A DNA stretch of 64,000 nt. Origin: an uncultured Spirochaetales bacterium. GTDB taxonomy: Bacteria > Myxococcota_A > UBA9160 > SMWR01. The translations under genes were made by a program, and so were the position numbers. This document shows, piece after piece, positions 12,373 through 62,637 of this stretch (position 1 is the stretch's first letter; every line of letters starts with the position of its first letter). Location: positions 1,357 through 65,356 of the forward strand of contig CAYTJA010000088.1 in NCBI GenBank assembly GCA_964437835.1. Reading direction: 5' to 3'. A model generated the notes under the pieces. That model did not search any database and had not been told where the DNA came from. It worked only from the letters and a program-made list of their open reading frames with translations.

Positions 12373-15195
12373 CTACGCGCGAGAGGGCTCCAGCACGCCG
12401 CGCAGCGCGCGCCCGGTGTGGCTCGCCTCGCAGCGCGCGACCTCTTCCGGCGTGCCCTCGACGACGATCTGCCCGCCACCTGCGCCGCCTTCGGGGCCGA
12501 GGTCGATCACCCAGTCTGCGCTCTTGATCACGTCCGGGTGGTGCTCGATCACGAGCACGCTGTTGCCGCCGTCGACGAGGCGGGTGAGCACTTCGAGCAG
12601 CTTCGCGACGTCGCCGAAGTGCAGCCCCGTGGTCGGCTCGTCGAGCAGGTAGAGGGTGCGGCCGGTCGCGCGGCGCGAGAGCTCGCGCGCGAGCTTGATG
12701 CGCTGCGCCTCGCCGCCCGAGAGCGTCGTCGCGGGCTGGCCGAGGTGCAGATAGTCGAGGCCGACCTCGTGCAGCGTGCGCAGCGGGCGCGCGATCTGCG
12801 GCACGTTCTCGAGCAGCGTCAGCGCGGCTTCGACCGGGAGCTCGAGCAGCTCTGCGATGCTCAGGCCCTTGTAGCGGATCTCGAGGGTCTCGCGGTTGTA
12901 GCGCCGGCCGCCACAGGCTTCGCAGCGCACGTAGAGATCCGGCAGGAAGTGCATCTCGATGCGCAGGATGCCGTCGCCCTGGCAGGACTCACAGCGCCCG
13001 CCCTTCAGGTTGAAGGAAAATCGGCCCGGCGTGTAGCCGCGCACGCGCGCCTCGGGCACCTGGCTCATCAGCTCGCGAATCGCGTCGAAGACGCCGGTGT
13101 AGGTCGCGGCGTTGCTGCGCGGCGTGCGGCCGATCGGCGACTGGTCGACGTCGATCACCTTGTCGATCTGCTCGAGGCCCGAGAGGCGCGCGAAGCGGCC
13201 CGGCGGCTCGGCCGCGCCGTGCAGGCGCGCGGCGAGCGCGCGGTAGAGTGTGTCGTTGATCAGCGTCGACTTGCCCGAGCCCGAGACGCCCGTGACGACG
13301 GTCAAGACGCCGAGCGGCACGCGCAGCGTGATGTCCTTCAGATTGTGCTCGCTGCAGCCGCTGAGCGTGAGCGCACGCGGGCCGGGCTTGCGGCGCCGCG
13401 GCGGCACCGGAATGCGCTTGCGGCCCGAGAGATAGGCGCCCGTCGGCGAGGCCTCGTTCGCGGAGATCTCCGCCGGCGTGCCTTCGGCGATTACGGCGCC
13501 GCCGTGCACGCCGGCGCCGGGGCCCATGTCGATCACCCAGTCCGCGGAGCGGATCGTCTCCTCGTCGTGCTCGACCACGAGCAGCGAATTTCCGGCGTCG
13601 CGCAGGCGAAACAGGCTCTCGAGCAGGCGCCGGTTGTCGCGCGGGTGCAGGCCGATCGAGGGCTCGTCGAGGATGTAGAGCACACCCATCAGGCTGGAGC
13701 CGACCTGCGTCGCGAGGCGGATGCGCTGGCCCTCGCCGCCCGAGAGCGTGGCGGCCGCGCGGTCGAGCGTGAGGTAGCCGAGGCCGACGTCCGCGAGGAA
13801 GCGCAGCCGGTTCTGGATCTCGGTCTGGATGCGCTGCGCGATCGCCTGCCGCGCGGGCGGGAGTGCCAGCGTCTCGAAGAAGCGCCGCGCGTCGCCTACC
13901 GAGAGCGCCGAGAGCTCCGCGATCGAGTGCCCTGCGATCTTCACGCCGAGCGCTTCGACGCGCAGCCGCGAGCCGCTGCAGCTCGGGCAGGGCGAGGCAC
14001 TGCGGAAGCGCGCGAGGCCATCCGCGGCGTCGTCCGCCGCGGCTTCGTCGCGGCGCGCGAGCTCGGCCATCACGCCGTCGAAGCGCCGCGCGAGCGGCTG
14101 ATCGCTGCCCGGGACCGGCAGCGGAATCAGCTCCTCGGCGCCGAACAGGATCGCGTCGCGCGCGAGCTTCGGGAGCTCGCTCCAGGGAGTGTCGAGATCG
14201 ACACCGAAATGCGTCGCGAGTGCCTCGAGCAGCATCGCGTAATAGCGCGGCGCGCTGCGTCCGCTCCACGGCGCGATCGCCTTGCGCAGCGGCAGCGAGG
14301 GATCCGACACCACGCGCCCGGCGTCGAGGGTCTCGGCGATGCCCAGGCCGCCGCAGGCCGGGCACGCGCCGTGCGGGTTGTTGAACGAGAAGCTGCGCGG
14401 CTCGATCTCGGGGTAGGAGATTCCGCACTTCGAGCAGGCCGCGCGCTCGGAGAGCTGCCACTCCTGCTGGCCCGGCCCGACGTCGATGCAGATCCTGCCG
14501 TCCGCGAGCCCGACCGCCGTCTCGATCGACTCGGCCACGCGCGAGCGCGCGGAGTCCTTGACCGCGATGCGGTCGACCAGCAGCTCGATCGTGTGCTTGC
14601 GGCGCTTGTCGAGCTGGATCTCCTGGCCGAGCTCGACCAATGCGCCATCGACGCGCGCGCGCACGAAGCCCTGGCGCTGCCAGGCCTCGAGCTCGCGCCG
14701 GTACTCGCCCTTGCGGTCGCGCACGGCGGGCGCGAAGACCTGCACGCGCGTGCCCTCGGGCAGCGCGAGCACGCGGTCGCTCATCTGCTGGATCGTCTGG
14801 CTCTCGATCTCGCGCCCGCACTTCCAGCAGTGCGGCAGACCCGCGCGCGCGAAGAGCAGGCGCAGGTAGTCGTGGATCTCGGTGATCGTGCCGACGGTCG
14901 AGCGCGGGTTGCGGCCGACCGTCTTCTGCTCGATCGCGATCGCCGGCGAGAGCCCGTCGATCGAATCGCAGTCCGGCTTGTTCAGCTGCTCGAGGAACTG
15001 CCGCGCGTAGGCCGAGAGCGATTCGACGTAGCGGCGCTGTCCCTCGGCGTAGAGCGTGTCGAAGGCCAGCGAGGATTTGCCCGAGCCCGAGGGCCCGGTG
15101 ACGACGACGAGCTGGTCGCGCGGGATGCGCAGCTCGAGGTTGCGCAGGTTGTGCTCGCGGGCGCCGCGGACGTGGATGCAGGACGCACCGCTCAC
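12373..15195 (-). CDS. uvrA: Excinuclease ABC subunit A
   Basis: Canonical N-terminus [55 protein letters not shown], two ABC modules and zinc-finger Cys clusters. The GTG at 15195 is preceded by GAAGG-N7. The in-frame upstream repeat region contains no ATG/GTG/TTG codon in this frame. Confidence 0.95.
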
Positions 15196-15197
15196 TT

Positions 15198-15401
15198 GTT
15201 GACCTTCGCTCGCCTGCGGCTCGCTGCGCGCGGCAGGGCCGCTTGCGGGTTGACCTTCGCGCGATTGCGGCTCGCTGCGCGTGACGGGGCGGCTTGCGTG
15301 TTGAGCTTCGCGCGCCTGTGGCTCGCTGTGCGCAGCGGAGCCGCTTGCGTGATGAGCCTCGTATGCCTGCGGCTCACTGTGAGCGGCATGACCGCTCGAG
15401 G
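15198..15401 (-). repeat. 4 tandem copies of a 51-bp GC-rich leader repeat (family shared with loci at 35.1, 50.4 and 62.5 kb)
   Basis: Unit starts at 15198, 15249, 15300 and 15351 (period exactly 51). The repeat fills the SurA-like/uvrA spacer. The uvrA-proximal unit ends in GAAGGTCAACAA followed directly by the GTG start. Confidence 0.95.
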
Positions 15402-15418
15402 GGGAAGGGTTGCAGGCT

Positions 15419-16516
15419 TCAGCGCGGGGTGCGCTCCGCGGGCTCCGCGAGCGCGAAGCTGCCGCGGCGCTCGATGAAGGTGTTGCTGCGCAACTTCTCG
15501 AGCCAGATCTGATACTCCTGCACCTCGAGCACGCCGCGGATTTCGCGCTCGAGCATCGGGCGCGCGACTTCGTAGCTGACTGGCGCGTATTCCTGCCGGT
15601 CGACGAGCTGGAGCAGGGTGCAGGCGCCCGGGAGCTCGACCACGGGCGAGAGATCGCCGGGCGAGAGCCCAGCAATGACCTCGCTCATCCAAATCGCGAG
15701 CTCGGCCGCGAGGATCCAGCCGAGGTCGCCGCCGCGCTCGGGCGCGACGCTGCTCAGCTCCGCGGCGACGGCCTCGAAGCGCTCGCCGGCGGCGACGCGC
15801 GCGGCCGCGGTCGCGACGAGCGCACAGGCGTCGTCCTTGCTGCGGCCCGGCCCGTCGCCGTAGGGCACCAGCAGCTGACGCAGGTGCACCTGGTCGCCGC
15901 CGGTCGGCTGATTCCCGTAGCGCTCGTCGAAGAGGCGCTTCACGGCGTCCTCCTCGACCCGGATCTTCGGGCCGACCACGGCCGAGACGATGCGGCTGCG
16001 CTCGATCTCGCGCCGCAGCTGCGCGCGGTAGTCGGCGAGCGAAAGCCCCTGCTCCTCGACGTTCGCGATCAGCTCCTCGCGGCTGCGGTTGTTCTCCTTC
16101 GCGATCGCGTCGATCGCCTGGTCGACGTCGACATCGCTGGCCGCGAGCTCGGCCTGGGCGACGACGCCCTCGAGCATGCGCCATTCGATCATGCGCTCGA
16201 GCGCCTCGGAGCGGATCGCGGCGAGGTCGTCATCGCCCGCGCCGCGCTGGCGCAGGTCGGCTTCCATGGGCGCGACCATGCCCATCACCTCCGACACCAG
16301 CACGACCTTGGTGCCGACCTGGGCGGCGATGCCGTCGATCAGCTCTTCCGCGGCGCGCGCTGTGCCGGGCGCGAGTGCCGAGGCGATGCCAACGCAGAGC
16401 CCCGCCGTGGTGCACGCGGCGGCGCTGGCCACACGCGCCGAAGACCGGAAGGTCCTGCCGCGCGCGGAGCACGGGGGCGGGAGCGCGCGCTGCGGGCGCC
16501 GCGGGAAGCGCATCAT
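15419..16516 (-). CDS. SurA-like periplasmic chaperone / parvulin-type peptidyl-prolyl isomerase
   Basis: Signal peptide, a SurA N-terminal-like domain (IDGIAAQVGTKVVLVSEV...), then a PPIC-type rotamase segment (VHLRQLLV...GGDLGWI...). Confidence 0.8.
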   Translation of the reverse strand: MMRFPRRPQRALPPPCSARGRTFRSSARVASAAACTTAGLCVGIASALAPGTARAAEELIDGIAAQVGTKVVLVSEVMGMVAPMEADLRQRGAGDDDLAAIRSEALERMIEWRMLEGVVAQAELAASDVDVDQAIDAIAKENNRSREELIANVEEQGLSLADYRAQLRREIERSRIVSAVVGPKIRVEEDAVKRLFDERYGNQPTGGDQVHLRQLLVPYGDGPGRSKDDACALVATAAARVAAGERFEAVAAELSSVAPERGGDLGWILAAELAIWMSEVIAGLSPGDLSPVVELPGACTLLQLVDRQEYAPVSYEVARPMLEREIRGVLEVQEYQIWLEKLRSNTFIERRGSFALAEPAERTPR

Positions 16517-26912: not shown

Positions 26913-28742
26913 CTATCGGGCGCCCCCGCCCGTGCCGGATGCGCGCGCCGGCGTCGCGGAGAGCGGCTCGATCCCCGCGCGTACGAGCCACTCGGAGCGC
27001 ACTGCGATGAACGAGTTCGCCGCGACGGCGCCGCCCGGAAACCACTCCGATCCGGTCACGACGTTGCCCCATTGCAGGTCGACGGCGGTGAAGCCCAGCG
27101 CAGCGAGCTCCGAGATCCGCTCCGGAGGCCACCACCACAGGTCGAAGAGCAGGTCGGGCTCCGGAAGGCCGCAGCGCTTGCGAGCCGCAGGTAGCTGCTT
27201 CAGGAACTGCAGCGAGCTGACTGCCAGACCGCCCGAGGTTCTGCGCGCGCGCGCGTAGACCGGGCAATCCACGACCGAGCGCTCGACGAGACCCGCGTAG
27301 TCCACGAAGTGGAAGCGCCCGAAGGACGCGCGCGCGAGGTGATAGGGCACGATTCCCATCTGCAGGCTCGCGATCACGACCGGAACCTGCTTGTGCGCAG
27401 CGATGCGCTGCGCGAGCTGCTGCAGGCGGCCGATCACCGCGAGATCGCGCAGATTGGGCCGCGAGCGCCGCTCGAACCAGCCGAGTTTCCGGCCGAGCAG
27501 CGTATCGGGCAGCTCGGGCCGCACCCAGATCGGGAGGCTGGTCGACTCGCGCGCCGCGAAGCGCAGCGTGTCTGCGACTCCGATCGCGGCGAGCAGGGCG
27601 ACGGCTGCGGCGAAGCTGCGCCTCCCGCGCAGGATGCCGTCGAGGCCAACCGCTGCGAGCGCGAGCGAGAGCGGCATGAACATCGCGAAGAAACGCCCAC
27701 CTTCCATCCAGTCCCCGGTGCCGAGCACGAAGGCCGCGCAGGCGCCGAAGCACAGCAGCGCGAGTCGAGGCGCCGGGTCCGGCAGCGCTCCGCGCAGCGC
27801 CCGCCGCGCGAGGCGGGCACAGCCCAGGGCCGCGAGCAGCGCGAGGAACAGCATCCAGGGATGCGAGGCGACGCACCACGCGTAGTACGCGAGTCCCTGC
27901 TGCAGGGACGCCCAGGCGAGGCCTGCGGACTTCGCGTAGACGGGCTGCGGGAGCAGCCGCCCGAAATACAGCCAGCGGAAGCCGAGCAACAGCGCGGTCT
28001 CGAGCGCGGCGACGAGCGCGAGCTGCGCGAGTCGCCGCAGCTGCGAGTCGCTGCCTTCGCGCGCTCGGGCGCCGCCGCGCGCGCGATCCAAGAGCGCCCA
28101 TCCGAGCACTCCGAGCAGCGCGCAGCCAGCGAGGATCGGGCCCTCGGGTCGCACCAGCAGCAGCAGCGCCGTCGCGAGGGACGCGCGCGCGAGGCCCGCG
28201 CGCGTCGCCGCAGCCGCGCCGAGCCAATCGCTCCAGCTCGCGAGCACGGCCAGCAGCGAAACTGCGACGAGCGGCGTCTCGATCCCGCCGAAACACCAGT
28301 AGACGAAGTACGCGTTCGTCGCGAGCAGCAGCGCGCTGGCCCATCCTGCCCGTTCGGTCGCGAGGGCCCGGCCGAGCCGAAACGCGAGCGGGACCGCACA
28401 CCCCCCGATCGCGAGCATCGCGACATGCCCGAGCGCGACCGGCTCGAGCATGCGCGCGCTCGCCAGCCGCAGGGCGGCGATCAGCAGCGTGGCCAGCAGG
28501 CTCGAGCTCTGCTCGACGCGCTCGCCATTGTAGTTCCAGAGCTCGCCGTACTCCGAGAGACTGAACGCGCTCCAGTAGAGGATGTGCGCGTCGTCGCGCC
28601 CGGCGGCGGGGAAGAGCGCGAAGCCCTGCAGCAGCAGCAGAGCGGCGGGCGCGAGCGGCGCGGCGCGGCGCAGCCGGCTGCGGCGGTCGCGGGCTGCGCG
28701 GCGCGCGACTTCCGGCTGCGACTCCGGGGGCCGGAGCGGCAC
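26913..28742 (-). CDS. Large polytopic membrane protein, GT-C-like (putative lipid-linked glycosyl/arabinosyl-type transferase)
   Basis: About 12 hydrophobic segments with an acidic DD in the first predicted loop (AGRDDAHILYWSAF), then a ~230-aa soluble C-terminal domain. The GTG at 28742 shares 1 nt with the gpmI stop. The function call is weak. Confidence 0.5.
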   Translation of the reverse strand: MPLRPPESQPEVARRAARDRRSRLRRAAPLAPAALLLLQGFALFPAAGRDDAHILYWSAFSLSEYGELWNYNGERVEQSSSLLATLLIAALRLASARMLEPVALGHVAMLAIGGCAVPLAFRLGRALATERAGWASALLLATNAYFVYWCFGGIETPLVAVSLLAVLASWSDWLGAAAATRAGLARASLATALLLLVRPEGPILAGCALLGVLGWALLDRARGGARAREGSDSQLRRLAQLALVAALETALLLGFRWLYFGRLLPQPVYAKSAGLAWASLQQGLAYYAWCVASHPWMLFLALLAALGCARLARRALRGALPDPAPRLALLCFGACAAFVLGTGDWMEGGRFFAMFMPLSLALAAVGLDGILRGRRSFAAAVALLAAIGVADTLRFAARESTSLPIWVRPELPDTLLGRKLGWFERRSRPNLRDLAVIGRLQQLAQRIAAHKQVPVVIASLQMGIVPYHLARASFGRFHFVDYAGLVERSVVDCPVYARARRTSGGLAVSSLQFLKQLPAARKRCGLPEPDLLFDLWWWPPERISELAALGFTAVDLQWGNVVTGSEWFPGGAVAANSFIAVRSEWLVRAGIEPLSATPARASGTGGGAR

Positions 28743-32719: not shown

Positions 32720-32751
32720 GAGATTGCTCCTGTCCGATGCCCTGCGTTCGG

Positions 32752-35231
<2,480 letters not shown>

Positions 35232-35288
35232 CTTGCCTCTGACGCGCCCTGGTCGGGCCGAGAAAGAACGTGCGCGCCCCGGGTCGGG

Positions 35289-35537
35289 CTACGCAAGGAC
35301 CTGCGCGACCACGCGACCCCGGGAGCGGCCGTAGCTCACCTTGCCGTCGATCAGCGCGAAGAGCGTGTAGTCACGGCCGAGGCCGACGTTGCGACCCGGG
35401 TGGATCTGGGTGCCGCGCTGGCGCACCAGGATCGAGCCGGCGCTCACCTGCTCGCCGCCGAAAATCTTCATGCCACGGCGCTGCCCGTGGCTGTCGCGCC
35501 CGTTGCGGGAGCTTCCCTGCCCTTTCTTGTGTGCCAT
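35289..35537 (-). CDS. rpmA: 50S ribosomal protein L27
   Basis: [31 protein letters not shown]... is a canonical L27 N-terminus. Confidence 0.97.
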
Positions 35538-44214: not shown

Positions 44215-45765
44215 GTGACTAGCCAGCGAATCCCGGAAGCCAATTCCCAGCCCGGCCCTGGAGCAGGGGGCCCCGCTGGCGGAAATCGCTCGCGCCGCGG
44301 CCGCGGCCGCCGCTCGCGCGGAGGCAATGGACGCGACCCGCGCGACCCGCGCGATCCCCGCGATTCCCACGATCCCCGCGATTCCCACGATCTCCGCGAT
44401 TCCCGCGATCCGCGCGATTCCCGCGATCCGCGCAGGCTGCGGATGGACTATCCGGAAGACGATTCGCTCGACGACTTCGTCGACCGCGGCGACGACGAAG
44501 ACGACACCACCGAAAAGCTCCACGTCAACGACCTCAAGGCACGGTCGATGCAGGACCTCACCGACCTGGCAGAGTCCCTGCTGGTCGAGAACGCCGCCGG
44601 CAAGCGCAAGCAGGATCTGATCTTCGAGATCCTGAAGGCGCAGACCGCCAAGCAGGGCAAGATCTACGCGGAGGGCGTGCTCGAGACCCTGCCGGACGGC
44701 TTCGGCTTCATGCGCGCGCCGGACCAGAACTACCTCGCCGGTCCCGACGACATCTACGTCTCGCCGTCGCAGATCCGCCGCTTCAACCTGCGTACCGGCG
44801 ACACCGTCGTGGGTCAGATCCGACCTCCGAAGGAGGGAGAGCGTTATTTCGCGCTGCTGAAGGTCAAGTCCATCAACTTCGAGGCGCCCGAGAAAGCGCG
44901 CCACAAGATCCTGTTCGACAACCTGACGCCGCTGTATCCCCAGGTGAAGTTCAACCTGGAGGCGCGCACGGGCGGAGTGACCACCCGCATCATCGACCTG
45001 ATCTCTCCGATCGGTAAGGGACAGCGCGCGTTGATCAATTCGCCGCCCAAGGCCGGCAAGACGATGATCCTGAAGGACATCGCGAACGCGATCGTCGAGA
45101 ACCACCCCGAGGTCTACCTGATCGTGCTGCTGATCGACGAGCGGCCCGAAGAGGTGACCGACATGAAGCGCAACGTGAAGGCCGAGGTCGTGTCCTCGAC
45201 CTTCGACGAGCCGGCCACGCGCCACGTGCAGGTTGCCGACATGGTGATCGAGAAGGCCAAACGCCTGGTCGAGCATCAGCGAGACGTAGTGATCCTGCTC
45301 GATTCGATCACGCGCCTGGCGCGCGCCCACAACACCGTGGTGCCGCATTCGGGCAAGATCCTCTCGGGTGGCGTCGACTCGAACGCGATGCACAAGCCGA
45401 AGCGCTTCTTCGGCGCGGCGCGCAACGTCGAGGAGGGCGGCAGCCTCACGATCGTGGGCACCGCACTGATCGACACCGGCTCGCGCATGGACGAGGTGAT
45501 CTTCGAGGAGTTCAAGGGCACCGGAAACAGCGAGCTCGTGCTAGACCGCAAGCTCGCCGACCGGCGCACCTACCCGGCGATCGACATCAACCGCTCGGCG
45601 ACGCGGCGCGAAGAGCTGCTGCTTCCCGAGAAGACGCTGAACCGCATGTACATCCTGCGCAAGGTGTTGCAGCCGCTCTCACCGGTCGACTCGATGGAAT
45701 TCCTGCTGGAAAAGATCAAGGCGACGGACACCAACCAGGAGTTCCTGGAGTCGATGAATTCGTGA
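44215..45765 (+). CDS. rho: Transcription termination factor Rho with an N-terminal R/G/D-rich extension
   Basis: Canonical Rho from [21 protein letters not shown] (N-terminal helix bundle), through GFGFMR and the CSD-like RNA-binding domain, P-loop PPKAGKT, and the Q/R loops, to the C-terminus. GTG 44215 gives a 116-aa extension. The alternative ATG 44443 would leave the repeat region untranslated. Confidence 0.93.
44332..44430 (+). repeat. 11 tandem 9-bp units (CGCGAYYCN; 18-bp higher-order period) inside the rho 5' region
   Basis: CGCGACCCG x2, then alternating CGCGATTCC / CACGATCCC / CGCGATCCG units. In the rho frame they read [33 protein letters not shown]. Confidence 0.95.
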
Positions 45766-49043: not shown

Positions 49044-50443
49044 ACATGGCGAGTCGAAACGCGAAGAGCCCGAAGCCGAAGGCTGCCGCGGGCAAGCTGA
49101 CCATTCCGCTGCTCAAGACGGACGAGGCAGGCTTTGCCGCGGCCTTCCACAGCTTGTGCAATCGGCGCATCCACGACGCAGGGGAAGTCGAACAAAGCGT
49201 GCGCGAGATCATCTCCGACGTGCGCCGCCGCGGCGACGCTGCGGTCTTCGAGTACACCCGCCGCTTCGACGCTGCGAAGCTCGAGCGGCTGGAGCTCAAG
49301 CAGGACGAGTGGGACGCGGGGATCGAGCTCGTGGATCCGGCCGACCGCGCGGCGCTCGGCAAGGCCGAGATGCGCGTGCGCGCGTTCCACCGCAAGCGCA
49401 TCCCGTCGAGCTGGGAAGTGCGGGAGGAGGGGGGCGGCATGCTCGGCTACCGGCTGCGCCAGCTCGAGCGCGTCGGCATCTACGTGCCCGGCGGTACCGC
49501 GCTGTATCCGTCGAGCGTGATCATGAACGCGGTTCCGGCTTCGGTGGTCGAGGTGCCGGAGATCGTGATGGCGACGCCGCCCGGTCCCGACGGGCGGATT
49601 CGGCCCGAGGTGCTGGTCGCGGCCCGCATGGCCGGCGTGCACAGGATCTTCAAGATGGGCGGCGCCCAGGCGATCGCCGCGCTCGCCTACGGAACCGAGT
49701 CGGTGCCGCGGGTCGACAAGATCGTGGGCCCCGGAAACGTGTATGTGGCGACTGCGAAACGCCTTGTCTTCGGCGAGGTCGCGATCGACGGGGAAGCCGG
49801 CCCGAGCGAGGTCGTGGTCGTGGCCGACAAGAGCGCGACACCGGCGTGGGTCGCGGCCGACCTGATCTCCCAGGCCGAGCACGACGAGCTCGCGAGCGCG
49901 ATCCTGATCACCCCGGTCAAGGCCCTCGCGGCCAAGGTTCTCGAGCAGCTGAATAAGCAGCTGGAGGGCCTCGCGCGGGCGAAAATCGCGCGCAAGGCGC
50001 TCCAGACCCGGGGCGCGATCATCGTCGCGCGAGATCTCGCCGAGTGCCTGGCGCTGGCCAACGACTTCGCGCCCGAGCACCTGGTTCTGGCCATGGATGA
50101 TGCCGAAGCGCGCTCCAAGCCGGTCAAGAACGCGGGCGCGATCTTTCTCGGGCACTACACTCCGGTGGCCGTAGGCGACTATCTGGCGGGTCCGAACCAC
50201 GTGCTGCCCACGGGCGGGACGGCGCGCTTCTTCTCTCCGCTCGGAGTCGACGACTTCCTGAAGCGGACCAGCATCGTCCGCTTCGAGCCGCCGAAGCTGC
50301 GCGAGCTCGGCTTGGACGTGATGCGGCTTGCCGAGCTCGAGGGGCTGACCGGCCACGGCAAGTCGGTCGATCTGCGGCTGCAGAAGATCCGCCGCGCGCG
50401 CCGCGAGCGCGAAGCGGCCCGCGAAGCCGAGCTGGAGCTCTGA
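49040..50443 (+). CDS. hisD: Histidinol dehydrogenase
   Basis: GIYVPGGTALYPSSVIMNAVPA...IVGPGNVYVATAKR...QAEHDE...GDYLAGPNHVLPT. The ATG at 49040 overlaps the murA stop (alternative ATG 49046). Confidence 0.95.
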   Translation: MNMASRNAKSPKPKAAAGKLTIPLLKTDEAGFAAAFHSLCNRRIHDAGEVEQSVREIISDVRRRGDAAVFEYTRRFDAAKLERLELKQDEWDAGIELVDPADRAALGKAEMRVRAFHRKRIPSSWEVREEGGGMLGYRLRQLERVGIYVPGGTALYPSSVIMNAVPASVVEVPEIVMATPPGPDGRIRPEVLVAARMAGVHRIFKMGGAQAIAALAYGTESVPRVDKIVGPGNVYVATAKRLVFGEVAIDGEAGPSEVVVVADKSATPAWVAADLISQAEHDELASAILITPVKALAAKVLEQLNKQLEGLARAKIARKALQTRGAIIVARDLAECLALANDFAPEHLVLAMDDAEARSKPVKNAGAIFLGHYTPVAVGDYLAGPNHVLPTGGTARFFSPLGVDDFLKRTSIVRFEPPKLRELGLDVMRLAELEGLTGHGKSVDLRLQKIRRARREREAAREAELEL

Positions 50444-50444
50444 C

Positions 50445-50605
50445 GCAAGGGGCCCTGCCCCGCGCAGTGAGCCGAAGGCGAACGAAGATCGTGAGGCTTG
50501 CAAGGGGCCCTGCCCCGCGCAGTGAGCCGAAGGCGAACGAAGATCACGAGGCTTGCAAGGGGTCATTCCCCGCGCAGTGAGCCGAAGGCGAACGAAGGTC
50601 ATGAG
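50445..50605 (+). repeat. 3 tandem copies of a 55-bp GC-rich leader repeat (same family as 15198-15401, opposite window strand, same orientation relative to the downstream gene)
   Basis: GCAAGGGG unit starts at 50445, 50500 and 50555 (period 55). The repeat fills the hisD-hisB spacer. The last unit ends in GAAGGTCATGAG, followed directly by the hisB ATG. Confidence 0.95.
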
Positions 50606-51205
50606 ATGAGCGCGGAGCGAAAACGCAGCGCCTCCGTGGTGCGTTCCACCAAGGAGACCCAGATCCAGGTCGAGCTCGATCTGGACGGGCGCGGGGACTA
50701 TCAGATCGCGACGGGCATCGCGTTCTTCGATCACATGCTCGAGTCCTTCGCGCGCCACGGGCTCTTCGACCTGCGTATCTCCGCAAAGGGCGATCTCAGC
50801 GTCGACACCCATCACACGGTCGAGGACGTCGGGATCACGCTGGGCCAGGCCCTGCGCGAGGCGCTCGGGAACGCGTCCGGGATCCGGCGCTACGGAAGCT
50901 GCGGGCTGCCGATGGCGGAGTCGAAGGTCGAGGTGTCGGTCGATGTGTCCAACCGGCCCTATCTCGTATACCGCGTCGAGCTCGGCAACGACCGCATCGG
51001 AAATTTCGACGCGACGCTGACGGAGGACTTCCTCTACGCCTTCTCGCAGAACGCCGGGCTCGATCTGCACGTGGAGCTCCGCTACGGCAAGAATCCGCAC
51101 CACATTGTCGAGGCGGTCTTCAAGGGCGTGGCGCGCGCGCTGCGCGAGGCTCTCGAACTCGACCCGCGCCAGCGCGGACTGCCCACCGTCAAGGGCGCGC
51201 TGTAG
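50606..51205 (+). CDS. hisB: Imidazoleglycerol-phosphate dehydratase
   Basis: SVVRSTKETQIQVELDLDGRG...FFDHMLESFARHG...DTHHTVEDVGI...NPHHIVEAVFKG. The ATG at 50606 is preceded by GAAGG-N7. Confidence 0.95.
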   Translation: MSAERKRSASVVRSTKETQIQVELDLDGRGDYQIATGIAFFDHMLESFARHGLFDLRISAKGDLSVDTHHTVEDVGITLGQALREALGNASGIRRYGSCGLPMAESKVEVSVDVSNRPYLVYRVELGNDRIGNFDATLTEDFLYAFSQNAGLDLHVELRYGKNPHHIVEAVFKGVARALREALELDPRQRGLPTVKGAL

Positions 51206-55851: not shown

Positions 55852-55890
55852 TCGCAAACCCATGAGCTGAGGTCTAGGAGCACACCCCCC

Positions 55891-57795: not shown

Positions 57796-59151
57796 TCAGG
57801 CCGGCGGGGGGACCTTGCCTAGCCAGGCGGAGTAGTCACCCTCGTAGCCGACCTGCTGCTGCCGCTCGCATACGCGCTGGCGCACGCGCGCGAGCGCGTC
57901 CTGCGCGATCCGCGCCTGCTGCGTGATCTGCGCGGCGATCGCGTGCCCCTCCGCGCGGGCCGCCGCGTGTGCACCTGCCGAGCTGCCTTCTTCTCCGGCG
58001 TGCCCATTGGGGCCGAGGCCGAGGAAGGCCTCGCTGATCTTCGCCGTGAGGCTGCGCGCGTGCTTGCGCGACGCGACGATGTTGCCCTTGCCGGTCACGA
58101 CGTTTCCGGCCGAGAACACGGTCGGATACTCGGCGAGGCGCCCGAGCTCCCAATCGCTGAATGCGAACAGCTCGCCCTGCATCGGAATGCCCGGGATCGG
58201 CTCCGGGATGCTGCCGATCGAGCTGATCACATAACATCCTCGGCGCTCGAACGTCTCTTCCGTCGGGAGGATCTTGCCGCCCTCCGCGCGCGTGCGCCGG
58301 AAACGCAGGCCCACCAGGCGTCCCTGCTCGACGATCAATTCCTCCGGCATGCACAGCGGCTCGATGTCGAAGCCGTATTTCTCCATCGCCTTCTCGAGCA
58401 GCTTCTTGCGGCTGCCGCGCACCTTCGCGGCGCGCTCGGGCGTCGCGTCCTCGGGGATCTCGGCCAGCGGCATGTCCTCTTGGCGCCGGCGGTAGTAGAT
58501 CGTGCAGCCCGCGAGGCCGAGATCGGAGATCTTCAACCCGTGGCCGGCCAGGATCTTCGGGATGCCCTTGGTCTCGAGCTCGAGCATTGTCGCCGCGATG
58601 CCGCGCTCGCGCAGCTTCTGCTGCGTCGTCTCGAGCATCAGCGCCTTCGCGACGTCGATCGACGCGAGGCCCCCACCGACGACGATCGCGCCGTCCATCG
58701 GCACGAAGCGCGGTCCGTCGTAGTTCGGGTCCTCGGCGTGGTTGAACCAGATGATGAAAGGATTCTGGTAGATCAGGCCCTTGCCGAGGAACGCATCGGC
58801 GCCCTCGACCGGAAGCGGGCGGTCGCGCCAGGCACCGCAGGCCAGCACCACGCCGCTGAAGCCCCAGTCGCGCGCGAGCGCGGTGAAGTCGACGTCGCGC
58901 CCGATGCGCGTGAGCGGAAGGAAGTGCACGCCGGGCAACGAGAGGCGCTCTCCGATCGCCTCGTATTCCTTGTTGCGGAGTGCGACGTGCCAGCGCGGAA
59001 GCCCGTCTTCGATCTTCCCGAAGGGCCGGGCATTCTGTTCGAAGACCACGACTTCGACGCCCTGCTCGGCGAGGGCGCCGGCCACCTCGGCACCCGCGAC
59101 GGCGCCCCCGATGACCGCGACGCAATGGGACGGAGACGCGTGCTGTGACAT
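57796..59151 (-). CDS. FAD/NAD(P)-binding oxidoreductase (glutamate-synthase small-subunit / FprA-like)
   Basis: N-terminal dinucleotide fold [29 protein letters not shown], a second [10 protein letters not shown] fold, and a C-terminal [13 protein letters not shown]. Confidence 0.75.
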
Positions 59152-61668: not shown

Positions 61669-62421
61669 TCAGCGACTGCCGTGCTCGACGATGCGCTCGT
61701 GCAGCTGCACCGGCGCGGGCGCCTTGCGGCCGAGGCGCAGATTCAGCGACTCGACGAAGACCGAGAAGCCCATCGCCGAGTAGAGGTAGCCCTTCGGCAC
61801 GTGTTGTTCGAAGCCGTCCGCGACCAGCGCGGTTCCGATCAGCAGCAGGAACGAGAGCGCGAGCACCTTGAGCGTCGGGTGCTGATCCACGAATTCGCTG
61901 ATCGGCTTTGCGACGAAGAGCATCAGCGCGACGGACAGCACGACGGCGCAGACCATCACTCCGACCTGCTGCGCCATGCCGACCGCGGTGATCACCGAAT
62001 CGAGCGAGAAGACCATGTCGAGCAGCATGATCTGCACGATCACGCTGCGGAACGTAGGCCGCGCCTGGACCGAGATCTCGCTCTCCGAGCCCTCGAGCTT
62101 CTGGTGGATCTCGAGCGTAGCCTTCGCGATCAGGAAGAGACCGCCGAGGATCAGGATCAGATCGCGGCCCGAGATTTCGTTTCCGATCACGCTGAAGAGC
62201 GGGCTCGTGAGCCGCACGATCCACGACAGCGACAACAACAGTCCGATGCGCATCAGCATCGCGAGCAGCAGCCCCACGCGGCGCGCTCGTTCGCGCTGCT
62301 CGAGCTGCAACTTTCCGGCCAGGATCGAGATGAAGATGATGTTGTCGATGCCGAGCACGAGCTCGAGCGCGGTCAGCGTCACGAGCGCGACCCAGGCCGA
62401 CGGATCCGCGAGCCAGTTCAT
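61669..62421 (-). CDS. TerC-family integral membrane protein
   Basis: ALELVLGIDNIIFISIL and the second LLDMVFSLDSVITAVG repeat typical of TerC/YkoY/Alx. The ATG at 62421 is preceded by GGAGG-N5. The listed longer ORF is rejected. Confidence 0.88.
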   Translation of the reverse strand: MNWLADPSAWVALVTLTALELVLGIDNIIFISILAGKLQLEQRERARRVGLLLAMLMRIGLLLSLSWIVRLTSPLFSVIGNEISGRDLILILGGLFLIAKATLEIHQKLEGSESEISVQARPTFRSVIVQIMLLDMVFSLDSVITAVGMAQQVGVMVCAVVLSVALMLFVAKPISEFVDQHPTLKVLALSFLLLIGTALVADGFEQHVPKGYLYSAMGFSVFVESLNLRLGRKAPAPVQLHERIVEHGSR

Positions 62422-62542
62422 GCCCACCTCCAGCGCGCCGATCCTATCGCCGCACGCGCCGCGCTGCCGGCACGCCGGCGGCGGCTGCGGCAGAATCCCG
62501 GGTGCAGATCCAACGAGGCTCCGGCACAGACCGACGAGACAT

Positions 62543-62590
62543 GCAAGCCGACGAAGTCGGCGCGCAGCGAGGCGCAGCCGAGCGAAGCGG
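62543..62590 (+). repeat. Single copy of the GC-rich leader repeat family, 48 nt upstream of the CYTH/CHAD gene
   Basis: GCAAG-CCGAC-GAA-GTCGG-CGCGCAGCGAGGCGCAGCCGAGCGAAGCGG aligns with the sense units at the uvrA and hisB loci. It is followed by an 8-bp hairpin GGTCCGGG-CTGCG-CCCGGACC (62594-62614). Confidence 0.75.
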
Positions 62591-62637
62591 GGTGGTCCGG
62601 GCTGCGCCCGGACCGGGACCACAAGGCAAGGAGTGCG

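Follow-up and report, generated by a model that had tools for sequence, protein, structure and literature searches.

In a 64,000-nucleotide stretch of DNA from an uncultured bacterium of the Myxococcota (contig CAYTJA010000088.1, positions 1,357 to 65,356; the whole stretch is referred to as the window), the spacer between a SurA-like gene and uvrA contains four tandem copies of a 51-nucleotide (nt) unit. This uvrA array is probably, with a likelihood of roughly 0.6, a local head-to-tail cluster of a short, non-coding, non-autonomous and clade-specific interspersed repeat. The best reading of the repeat is a non-autonomous intergenic element similar to the repetitive extragenic palindromes (REPs) and to the interspersed repetitive units of mycobacteria (MIRUs). 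Its unit consists of two hairpins, which are kept by compensatory base changes, and a comparison of the surA-uvrA, hisD-hisB, proB-proA and dnaG-rpoD junctions shows that copies have been gained and lost between close relatives. A sequence-only reading of the window had described the array as a structured leader of uvrA; this observation is essentially right, and 'REP-like, structured, possibly mobile' holds, but 'leader' does not.

The uvrA array and its two-hairpin unit

Read on the minus strand, the surA-uvrA spacer consists of 19 non-repeat bases followed by four head-to-tail 51-nt units at 15399-15196. The array starts 20 nt past the stop codon TGA of the SurA-like gene (15421-15419) and ends at the base preceding the GTG start codon of uvrA (15195-15193). 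Tandem Repeats Finder reports a period of 51 for 15197-15396, with 3.9 copies, 78% matches and 0 indels, which bears out the four 51-bp tandem units that had been claimed (placed here at 15196-15399), and the quoted sequence of the first unit is present on the minus strand. The 27-nt core GCGCAGCGAGCCGCAGGCGAGCGAAGG of the uvrA-proximal unit has 4 matches at ≤3 mismatches in the window, the G+C content of which is 70%, compared to 0 in 100 shuffles. The array and its flanking genes comprise the following features:

12373-15195, minus: uvrA coding sequence with the GTG start at 15195-15193, aligned with the start in relatives; Pfam UvrA_inter and UvrA_DNA-bind
15196-15246, minus: uvrA-array unit 4, perfect family consensus with 0 core mismatches, 75.2 bits (top window match of the covariance model); hairpin H1 at 15242-15230, hairpin H2 at 15224-15208, GAAGG at 15207-15203, then 7 nt and the uvrA GTG
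15247-15297, minus: uvrA-array unit 3, 54.8 bits (covariance model); no H1, 3' arm of H2 changed (GGC>ATC)
15298-15348, minus: uvrA-array unit 2, 62.8 bits (covariance model); H1 GCGGC-TCC-GCTGC with one G.T, A20>C in H2
15349-15399, minus: uvrA-array unit 1 (distal, degenerate), 35.1 bits (covariance model); H1 GAGCGG-TCATG-CCGCTC, tandem G.A of H2 gone
15400-15418, minus: non-repeat rest of the surA-uvrA spacer
15419-16516, minus: gene of a SurA-like peptidyl-prolyl isomerase, upstream and co-directional (P0001, 100% identical); Pfam SurA_N and Rotamase

A unit consensus was built from 140 aligned copies. The unit is non-coding, about 45-60 nt long and consists of GCAA, the hairpin H1, GCGCA, the hairpin H2, GAAG and a tail, in this order. 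H2 is a near-invariant hairpin of 17 nt (G-Y-G-A-G-N-C-[G-N-A]-G-N-C-G-A-R-C), in which five Watson-Crick pairs are arranged around a tandem G.A/A.G and closed by a C-GNA-G triloop. H1 is hypervariable; its first G and last C are fixed, and it can have any sequence provided that it pairs. The tail after GAAG is weakly conserved (approximately NYCAYCRGG), purine-rich and often Shine-Dalgarno-like. The first base of the 5' motif GCAAG (position -1) is a G in 100 of 103 copies, and the following CAAG is invariant; no conservation was found upstream of the motif in the aligned copies.

The two variable pairs of H2 had been wildcards in the scan by which the loci were collected and therefore provide an unbiased test of covariation. 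Pair Y7-R21 is C-G in 127 copies and T-A in 23, with 0 mismatches, and pair N11-N17 is C-G in 86 and G-C in 56, 6 copies being mismatched, and the loop base is freely variable. The stem changes are thus compensatory, in line with the structured, REP-like interspersed element that had been proposed. The hairpins listed earlier for the window, with differing yet complementary stems, are all present, and the covariation extends across the family; unit 3 is the one uvrA-locus unit that had been seen to lack a hairpin. In the model alignment, 98.8% of the cells are paired, compared to 82.5% after shuffling and 11-36% with partners slid by 1-3 columns, the H1 portion of this alignment being fitted to the model and hence leaning towards pairing. 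An outside-in count, which is independent of the model, finds in-register H1 stems of ≥2 bp in 94 of 120 copies. H1 occurs with 34 distinct stems and lengths of 7-31 nt, has GNA triloops in 52 of 69 cases and reads literally GCGNAGC (GCGAAGC or GCGGAGC) in 23 copies. The window stem types GGGG/CCCC and GCGG/CCGC are each found with both loop types, CCT and TCAT[T/G], so that the same pair is swapped on two backgrounds.

This pattern bears on the idea that the repeat is a double-stranded DNA site for a nucleoid or topology protein, as are IHF or gyrase for the bacterial interspersed mosaic elements (BIMEs) of E. coli, and that its hairpin potential is incidental. Such a site would be consistent with the near-invariant 26-bp core across many species and with the extragenic location. 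However, changes at the two variable positions of the core are seen only in the form of complementary intrastrand pairs, which is not required of an asymmetric duplex, H1 conserves pairing and not sequence, and the observed bias in gene orientation is not expected of a duplex site. This explanation is highly improbable.

The stems are nearly pure Watson-Crick: among about 1300 cells, 10 G.T and 4 C.A were counted, an asymmetry that is not clear and not decisive between RNA and DNA, or between strands. The loop motifs of H1 and H2 are exceptionally stable in single-stranded DNA too. The hairpins may act in RNA or in single-stranded DNA, and selection of the repeat at the RNA level, as had been suggested, is possible. 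Intrastrand template switching at quasi-palindromes could give perfectly paired, ever-different H1 arms without selection on RNA; it is also expected to erase the tandem G.A of H2. As this tandem G.A is retained, H2 is either under selection or the recognised part of the element.

From the distal to the proximal end, the uvrA units score 35, 63, 55 and 75 bits in the covariance model. The otherwise invariant H2 is mutated in the three distal units, and these units are decaying, which is the opposite of what is expected for a selected leader (35-63 compared to 75 bits). A contig of 1674 bp that is identical to the window (L115, Logan SRR9952630) terminates within the fourth uvrA unit; the end of this short-read contig inside the array indicates that arrays break assemblies.

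Turnover at operon junctions and the repeat family

A profile hidden Markov model (HMM) and a covariance model, the latter run on the window without filters, agree on 9 solid units at 4 window loci, namely 15196-15399 (four units, minus), 50445-50605 (three units, plus), 62543-62595 (one unit, plus) and 32734-32784 (one unit, minus). The copy between proB and proA (32734-32784) had been overlooked by the sequence-only reading, which had correctly placed three 55-bp units upstream of hisB (50445-50605, found by Tandem Repeats Finder and both models) and one copy upstream of the CHAD gene. The units outside the uvrA array and the modules that follow them are:

50445-50499, plus: hisB-array unit 1, 55 nt, beginning 1 nt after the hisD stop codon TGA (50441-50443); 69.9 bits
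50500-50554, plus: hisB-array unit 2, 96% identical to unit 1
50555-50605, plus: hisB-array unit 3; H1 GGGG-TCATT-CCCC
32734-32784, minus: single proB-proA unit; 63.8 bits
32720-32733, minus: tail after the proB-proA unit, CATCGGACAGGAGCAATCTC, with AGGAG at 32731-32727, 7 nt ahead of the proA ATG (32719)
62543-62595, plus: lone unit separating the divergently oriented genes for a TerC-family protein (minus) and the CHAD protein (plus); 51.5 bits; H1 GCCGAC-GAA-GTCGGC, H2 a GGC/GCC variant
62596-62632, plus: extra GC-rich hairpin module after the CHAD-upstream unit, GGTCCGGGC-TGC-GCCCGGACC

At four junctions, the window was set against the orthologous sites of its closest available relatives. 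The surA-uvrA spacer comprises 223 nt in the window; in relatives with the same gene order it is element-free and comprises 34 nt (SurA 82% identical) or 19 nt (75%). The hisD-hisB spacer of the window (162 nt) consists of one base and three units up to the ATG, and the spacers of relatives (HisB 87-88% identical) are element-free, 35-41 nt long and contain their own AGGAG in two of three cases. The proB-proA unit occurs in the window as well as in a relative at 95% identity. L127 has no unit at this site, and in a relative at 81% identity the two genes overlap by ATGA. Between dnaG and rpoD, the relative's locus L118 has 1.5 units and the window only TGAGGTCTAGGAGC. As the orthologous spacers of the nearest relatives are element-free, the copies are lineage-specific insertions and not a conserved leader. 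The mobility that had been considered possible is thus probable, or the element has at least been repeatedly gained and lost.

The same comparison affects the view, taken by the sequence-only reading, that the repeat is a cis-regulatory structured leader (riboregulator) of uvrA, hisB, the CHAD gene and obg. All true window copies face the downstream gene, and two of them are joined to the start codon with an identical GAAGG-N7 spacing, which would suit a leader. However, these downstream genes are unrelated in function, the uvrA, hisB and proA copies are missing from the nearest relatives (the element-free surA-uvrA spacers of 19-34 nt are an example), units 1-3 of the uvrA array are decayed, and the copy number varies from 1 to 4 per site. 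The uniform orientation that had been noted stands for the true window copies; across the family, no more than 60 of 97 copies point towards the downstream gene (60:37) and 18 lie in convergent spacers, and the supposed obg copy is not a member of the family. With its orthologous sites empty, the leader is largely refuted and very improbable.

The wider family was collected in a scan of one genome per species with the exact core pattern, which had wildcards at four core positions. At least 114 loci were found, nearly all of them in about 40 metagenome-assembled genomes (MAGs) of uncultured Myxococcota or 'Deltaproteobacteria', and the covariance model has 174 plus 28 matches in the collected loci. 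The repeat appears specific to a clade of uncultured Myxococcota, and an extrapolation suggests hundreds of copies per genome. Only 2 matches were found in 2.9 million viral contigs, and no phage link is therefore apparent.

Copies cluster only head-to-tail. Among the 150 best matches, neighbours within 300 nt form 35 same-strand pairs and 0 opposite-strand pairs, with periods of 45-220 nt (45, 51, 53, 55, 57, 59, 71, 83 and others) that are not constrained to multiples of 3. The hisB array has a period of 55 (50445-50605; 2.9 copies, 93% matches in Tandem Repeats Finder), and its units are mutually 90-96% identical. The periods of 51 and 55 equal the unit length, and units abut without spacers or have further repeat modules between them, so the earlier exclusion of a CRISPR array is correct. 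Third modules comparable to the one at the CHAD locus follow many family members.

Two subfamilies were noticed among the loci. One lacks H1, has GCAAGTTTC directly ahead of the core and carries the tail GAAGACCATAAGGAGG, a full Shine-Dalgarno sequence directly before start codons; it includes L002, L019, L038, L045, L057 and L066, from the long-read MAG MFD09206.bin.2.206 and its relatives. The other has CAAGGAGGCCGAC-loop-GTCGGCC-GAC before the core, and in many cases a third module of considerable length (...CCCGAGCGCGAGCGAATAGCGAGCGCGAAGG...) comes after it; it includes L004, L010, L025, L026, L043, L044, L064, L075, L078, L096 and L101, and with its long third module it makes the family a mosaic.

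At the proB-proA junction, the stop codon TAG of proB (32754-32752) sits in the loop of H2, and the repeat encodes the last 10 codons and the stop of the NCBI-annotated proB (P0241, 406 amino acids; 32752-32784, minus). ProB of element-free relatives ends 8 residues earlier, has an unrelated tail and overlaps proA. The tail CATC[A/G]GACAGGAGC is common to the proB-proA copy and the L118 dnaG-rpoD copy. A TAG stop codon fused to the 5' end (TAGCAAG) was considered as a defining feature of the family and rejected; it is found in 12 of 118 copies, and TAG accounts for 38% of stops in these genomes.

The CHAD gene and the TerC-family gene divergent from it are supported by Pfam. Their spacer spans 62428-62637, next to the TerC-family gene at 61669-62427 (minus). 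TerC genes often carry a yybP-ykoY riboswitch; none was found by Rfam in this spacer.

The degenerate copy that had been reported upstream of obg (35110-35231) is really a separate direct repeat of 2 x 61 nt at 35079-35200, with 77% identity between its copies. The covariance model of the family gives it 6.7 bits (E ~10), and the profile HMM does not recognise it either. Its obg-sense strand shows GCAAG and GAGCCGAAAG arranged in the order known from the two-hairpin family, and judged by these motifs a very remote relationship is conceivable. A further repeat of 2 x 31 nt is located at 35243-35307. A 23.7-bit match at 58031-58067 was taken as chance, being within coding sequence and without H2. 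Two other tandem repeats occur in the window: about 11 copies of the 9-nt unit CGCGATCCC at 44332-44433 (88% matches when scored with an 18-nt period), immediately before the open reading frame (ORF) 44443-45765 or at its 5' end, and 2.1 copies of a 38-nt repeat at 28642-28720 (83% matches, nested 9- and 18-nt periods, long minus-strand ORF), which is probably a coding low-complexity repeat.

Gene context, expression signals and a possible mechanism

Gene context was called in two ways, by a codon-bias gene caller trained on the loci and by a six-frame score of 300 nt on each side. By the six-frame score, copies between co-directional gene pairs are sense in 46 cases and antisense in 18 (2.6:1, p = 6e-4), and 18 copies lie in convergent and 8 in divergent spacers; the codon-bias caller counts 43 sense, 16 antisense, 23 convergent and 13 divergent copies. 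The orientation relative to genes, which the sequence-only reading had asked to be checked, is hence not uniform but biased to gene sense; this bias is real, yet far from the uniformity of the window copies. The preceding stop codon is found at a median distance of 26 nt, and family-wide, copies occur after stop codons and in convergent spacers as often as before starts. Spacers that follow stop codons are thus preferred, and it is no less appropriate to call the element a trailer of the upstream gene than a leader of the downstream gene.

This context could also be explained by a selected RNA element of polycistronic mRNAs, such as a post-stop barrier to 3'-exonucleases, a processing site or a protein-binding module, which is kept because it is beneficial to the expression of the flanking genes. 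Some E. coli REPs have been shown to act as a 3'-exonuclease barrier or in processing. The sense bias of 46:18 in co-directional pairs, the closeness to the preceding stop codon (median 26 nt), the rarity in divergent (promoter) spacers (8 compared to 18 convergent), the compensatory changes in both hairpins with an invariant tandem G.A motif and the lack of a terminator-like T run, by which read-through is expected, are all in accordance with such an element. However, 18 of the 64 co-directional copies are antisense, the same operon junctions are empty in the nearest relatives, and the distal uvrA units are decaying; moreover, G.U wobble is nearly absent, the strand asymmetry is unclear (10 compared to 4), and no Rfam family matches. 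A selected RNA element is therefore regarded as unlikely.

The last units of the two larger arrays are closely joined to translation starts. The GAAGG-N7-GTG that had been described before uvrA is present (GAAGG at 15207-15203, 7 nt ahead of the start), and hisB is preceded by GAAGG-N7-ATG (GAAGG at 50594-50598, ATG at 50606). Owing to this identical junction of the last unit with the start codon, GAAGG is now the sole candidate ribosome-binding site at uvrA and hisB, and the last uvrA unit appears to supply it. Family-wide, 10 of 43 sense copies and 0 of 16 antisense copies lie ≤20 nt from the next start (p = 0.049), and downstream starts are located 5-9 nt after GAAG in 8 of 47 cases, including uvrA and hisB. 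No sigma-70-like promoter was found at the uvrA or hisB array, and neither array contains an intrinsic terminator-like site (GC-rich hairpin and T run). Rfam 15 has 0 matches at the gathering score in the whole window, and at permissive thresholds the best match has 20.6 bits compared to a cut-off of 58.6; a scan for tRNA and tmRNA genes found none, and the GC skew of the window, which was meant to separate replication from transcription bias, gave no usable signal.

No ATG, GTG or TTG occurs in the uvrA reading frame anywhere across the array, which agrees with the earlier statement that the array is not translated in this frame. In another frame, an Arg/Ala-rich ORF of 65 codons (15192-15389, minus) begins with an ATG in the hairpin loop of unit 1 (15389-15387), crosses all four units and ends with a TGA that overlaps the uvrA GTG (GTGA, -4 overlap); its product of 65 amino acids has no Pfam family match. 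At hisB, a tiny ORF, ATG-AGA-TGA (50601-50609), overlaps the ATG in the same manner (ATGA, -4 overlap), and a tiny ORF ATG-AG[C/G]-TGA in the dnaG-rpoD spacer is conserved between the window (55862-55870) and a relative (L118, approximately 15065-15073). The tiny ORFs at hisB and dnaG-rpoD may be translational-coupling devices.

These ORFs invite comparison with a translated spacer of the MIRU type, in which a short array ORF hands ribosomes to the next gene via a -4 stop/start overlap, as has been proposed for MIRUs (PMC12548453). The 65-codon ORF through four 17-codon units with GTGA at uvrA, the two-codon ORF with ATGA at hisB and the same ATGA arrangement in L053 would fit. On the other hand, the ATG of the uvrA array lies inside a hairpin and has no Shine-Dalgarno sequence, the 65-amino-acid product matches no Pfam family, the periods of the family are not restricted to multiples of 3, none of the three frames of the hisB array is free of stop codons, and all frames are kept open simply by the composition of the T-free core. 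Such coupling is hence not general, and because of the hisB stops and the T-free core, it is rated a minor possibility.

According to the preferred reading as a REP/MIRU-like repeat, a trans-acting activity would copy and spread the element. This activity would recognise H2, as the invariant hairpin, and the linkers GCAA, GCGCA and GAAG, all three of which are related, possibly on single-stranded DNA, and the element would ride passively on the operon mRNA. Tight operon junctions would tolerate it thanks to the translation signals in its tail: survival there would be mainly in the orientation whose GAAGG/AGGAG tail keeps the next gene translated, in places also by a -4 overlapping short ORF. 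As survival would depend on the restored translation of the next gene, the sense bias would result from survivorship, which resembles the proposal for mycobacterial MIRUs.

Several observations weigh against this reading. The ends of the element, GCAAG... and ...GAAG-tail, are not complementary, so that terminal inverted repeats are lacking, and direct repeats of ≥7 bp in the flanks are no commoner than in permuted flanks, a test that leaves duplications of 2-4 bp possible; without target duplication and inverted ends, transposition is inferred from presence and absence only. Seemingly convincing long target-site duplications (GGCTCTAG in L020, TCATGCGC in L004) were rejected, as the distribution of the longest words shared by the flanks equals that of permuted flanks. 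No mobilising enzyme was found among the genes between the oppositely oriented copies inspected in 8-kb MAG pieces, which are ordinary housekeeping genes, and the empty dnaG-rpoD site of the window (TGAGGTCTAGGAGC) could be a deletion scar and not a never-occupied site. The invariance of the core is partly due to ascertainment, as the loci were gathered by an exact core pattern, and the gene calls of the MAG loci come from a purpose-built codon-bias caller. Starts are weakly enriched at 5-9 nt from GAAG (8 of 47), and GAAGG matches the usual anti-Shine-Dalgarno sequence at 4 nt only (AAGG). Folding energies of single units and of the whole array are not better than those of shuffled sequences (z -1.5 to +0.9) and do not provide the RNA-folding support that had been sought; moreover, the nearest-neighbour minimum-energy fold favours an alternative register of H2, which is contradicted by the covariation. 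The structural support is thus comparative and not thermodynamic.

A more specific, though doubtful, proposal is that the element represents a hitherto unseen class of mobile DNA, one that relies on hairpins of single-stranded DNA. The unit would then consist of two very stable GNA-triloop mini-hairpins between three related linkers, and GCAA, GCGCA and GAAG would be the recognition or cleavage sites of a putative HUH or primase-like enzyme. Integration would be strictly head-to-tail, without target duplication and at the stop/start junctions of operons, to which the element would bring its own stop codon and Shine-Dalgarno signals. Each round of copying would rewrite H1, with intrastrand template switching as one possible way, and this would account for the 34 stems, all different and perfectly paired, next to an invariant H2. 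The Watson-Crick stems, the DNA-stable loops and the lack of duplications of ≥7 bp are compatible with an HUH-type single-strand mechanism but no proof of it.

For genome analysis, the annotation of this lineage has to be read with caution, as the 3' end of proB and the ribosome-binding sites of uvrA, hisB and proA are repeat-derived, and the repeat explains assembly breaks in these MAGs. The family could serve as a test bed for the spread of hairpin elements without a linked transposase and for the tolerance of insertions in tightly coupled operons. The combination of a hypervariable, perfectly paired hairpin with an invariant tandem-G.A hairpin is unusual and could point to a specific recognition protein.

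Comparison with known repeats

No REP-like repeat of myxobacteria and no interspersed repeat built from mini-hairpin motifs was found described in open-access papers. The two-hairpin family is thus apparently undescribed so far, and the covariance model (R1) adds an easily searchable repeat family to a phylum for which REP-like elements were not found in this literature.

In DNA, the mini-hairpin d(GCGNAGC) is reported to have a melting temperature of 76.5 °C, to be nuclease-resistant and to occur at initiation sites of single-strand replication (PMC13037366; PMC3201870). In the Myxococcota repeat, 23 copies have GCGAAGC or GCGGAGC as H1. The motif C-GNA-G forms 52 of the 69 H1 triloops and every H2 loop, and the internal 5'-YGAG/CGAR-3' of H2 corresponds to the Y-GA-R context of stable tandem G.A pairs. 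These mini-hairpins are, however, structural motifs and not genetic elements.

Like the Correia elements of Neisseria, which are miniature inverted-repeat transposable elements (MITEs), and the pneumococcal BOX elements, the repeat is small, non-autonomous, intergenic and able to donate expression signals. The optional third modules after the core resemble the modular structure of BOX. In contrast to both, the repeat lacks terminal inverted repeats, shows direct repeats in its flanks no more often than expected and is much shorter.

Like the repeat, MIRUs are units of 40-100 bp, single or in head-to-tail tandem, that are found in operon spacers of housekeeping genes, oriented with the genes and differing in copy number per site; for the Myxococcota repeat, this applies to surA-uvrA, hisD-hisB and proB-proA in the window, and the orientation is a bias family-wide (46:18). 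MIRUs were proposed to 'insert themselves at start codons' with an ORF coupled by a -4 overlap (PMC12548453), and the repeat can likewise lie at start codons, where its signals, among them stop/start overlaps of -4, may allow translation of the next gene to continue. It differs from MIRUs in phylum, probably in sequence and by its defined, covarying two-hairpin structure; in addition, its hisB array cannot be translated through, about 28% of the co-directional copies are antisense, and many copies lie in convergent spacers.

REPs and the REP doublets forming hairpins (REPINs) are short, extragenic, high-copy, non-coding, hairpin-forming and lineage-specific, as is the repeat, a short imperfect palindrome with 9 units in 4 spacers of 64 kb and at least 114 loci. 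The REP/REPIN elements of Enterobacteria and Pseudomonas go together with RAYT transposases (Y1 HUH enzymes), whose genes are flanked by the repeats; for the Myxococcota repeat, the genes inspected between oppositely oriented copies in 8-kb MAG pieces are housekeeping genes. REPs carry a GTAG motif 5' of their palindrome. The repeat also has a conserved short motif directly 5' of a hairpin, GCAA(G), which is not a tetranucleotide of the GTAG type. Further differences are the unrelated sequence, the two hairpins per unit, one of which is invariant with a tandem G.A, and the head-to-tail arrangement: REPINs and BIMEs are inverted doublets, whereas the repeat forms 0 inverted and 35 head-to-tail pairs. 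As in REPs, a target-site duplication (≥7 bp) was not apparent. A striking likeness is the hypervariable segment that retains only its ability to pair; in the REPINs of Pseudomonas fluorescens SBW25, no two spacers are identical and all form hairpins (PMC3337134). The repeat behaves like both REP/REPIN elements and MIRUs but lacks the inverted doublets and the GTAG of the former, and the internal coupled ORF of the latter is not general in it.

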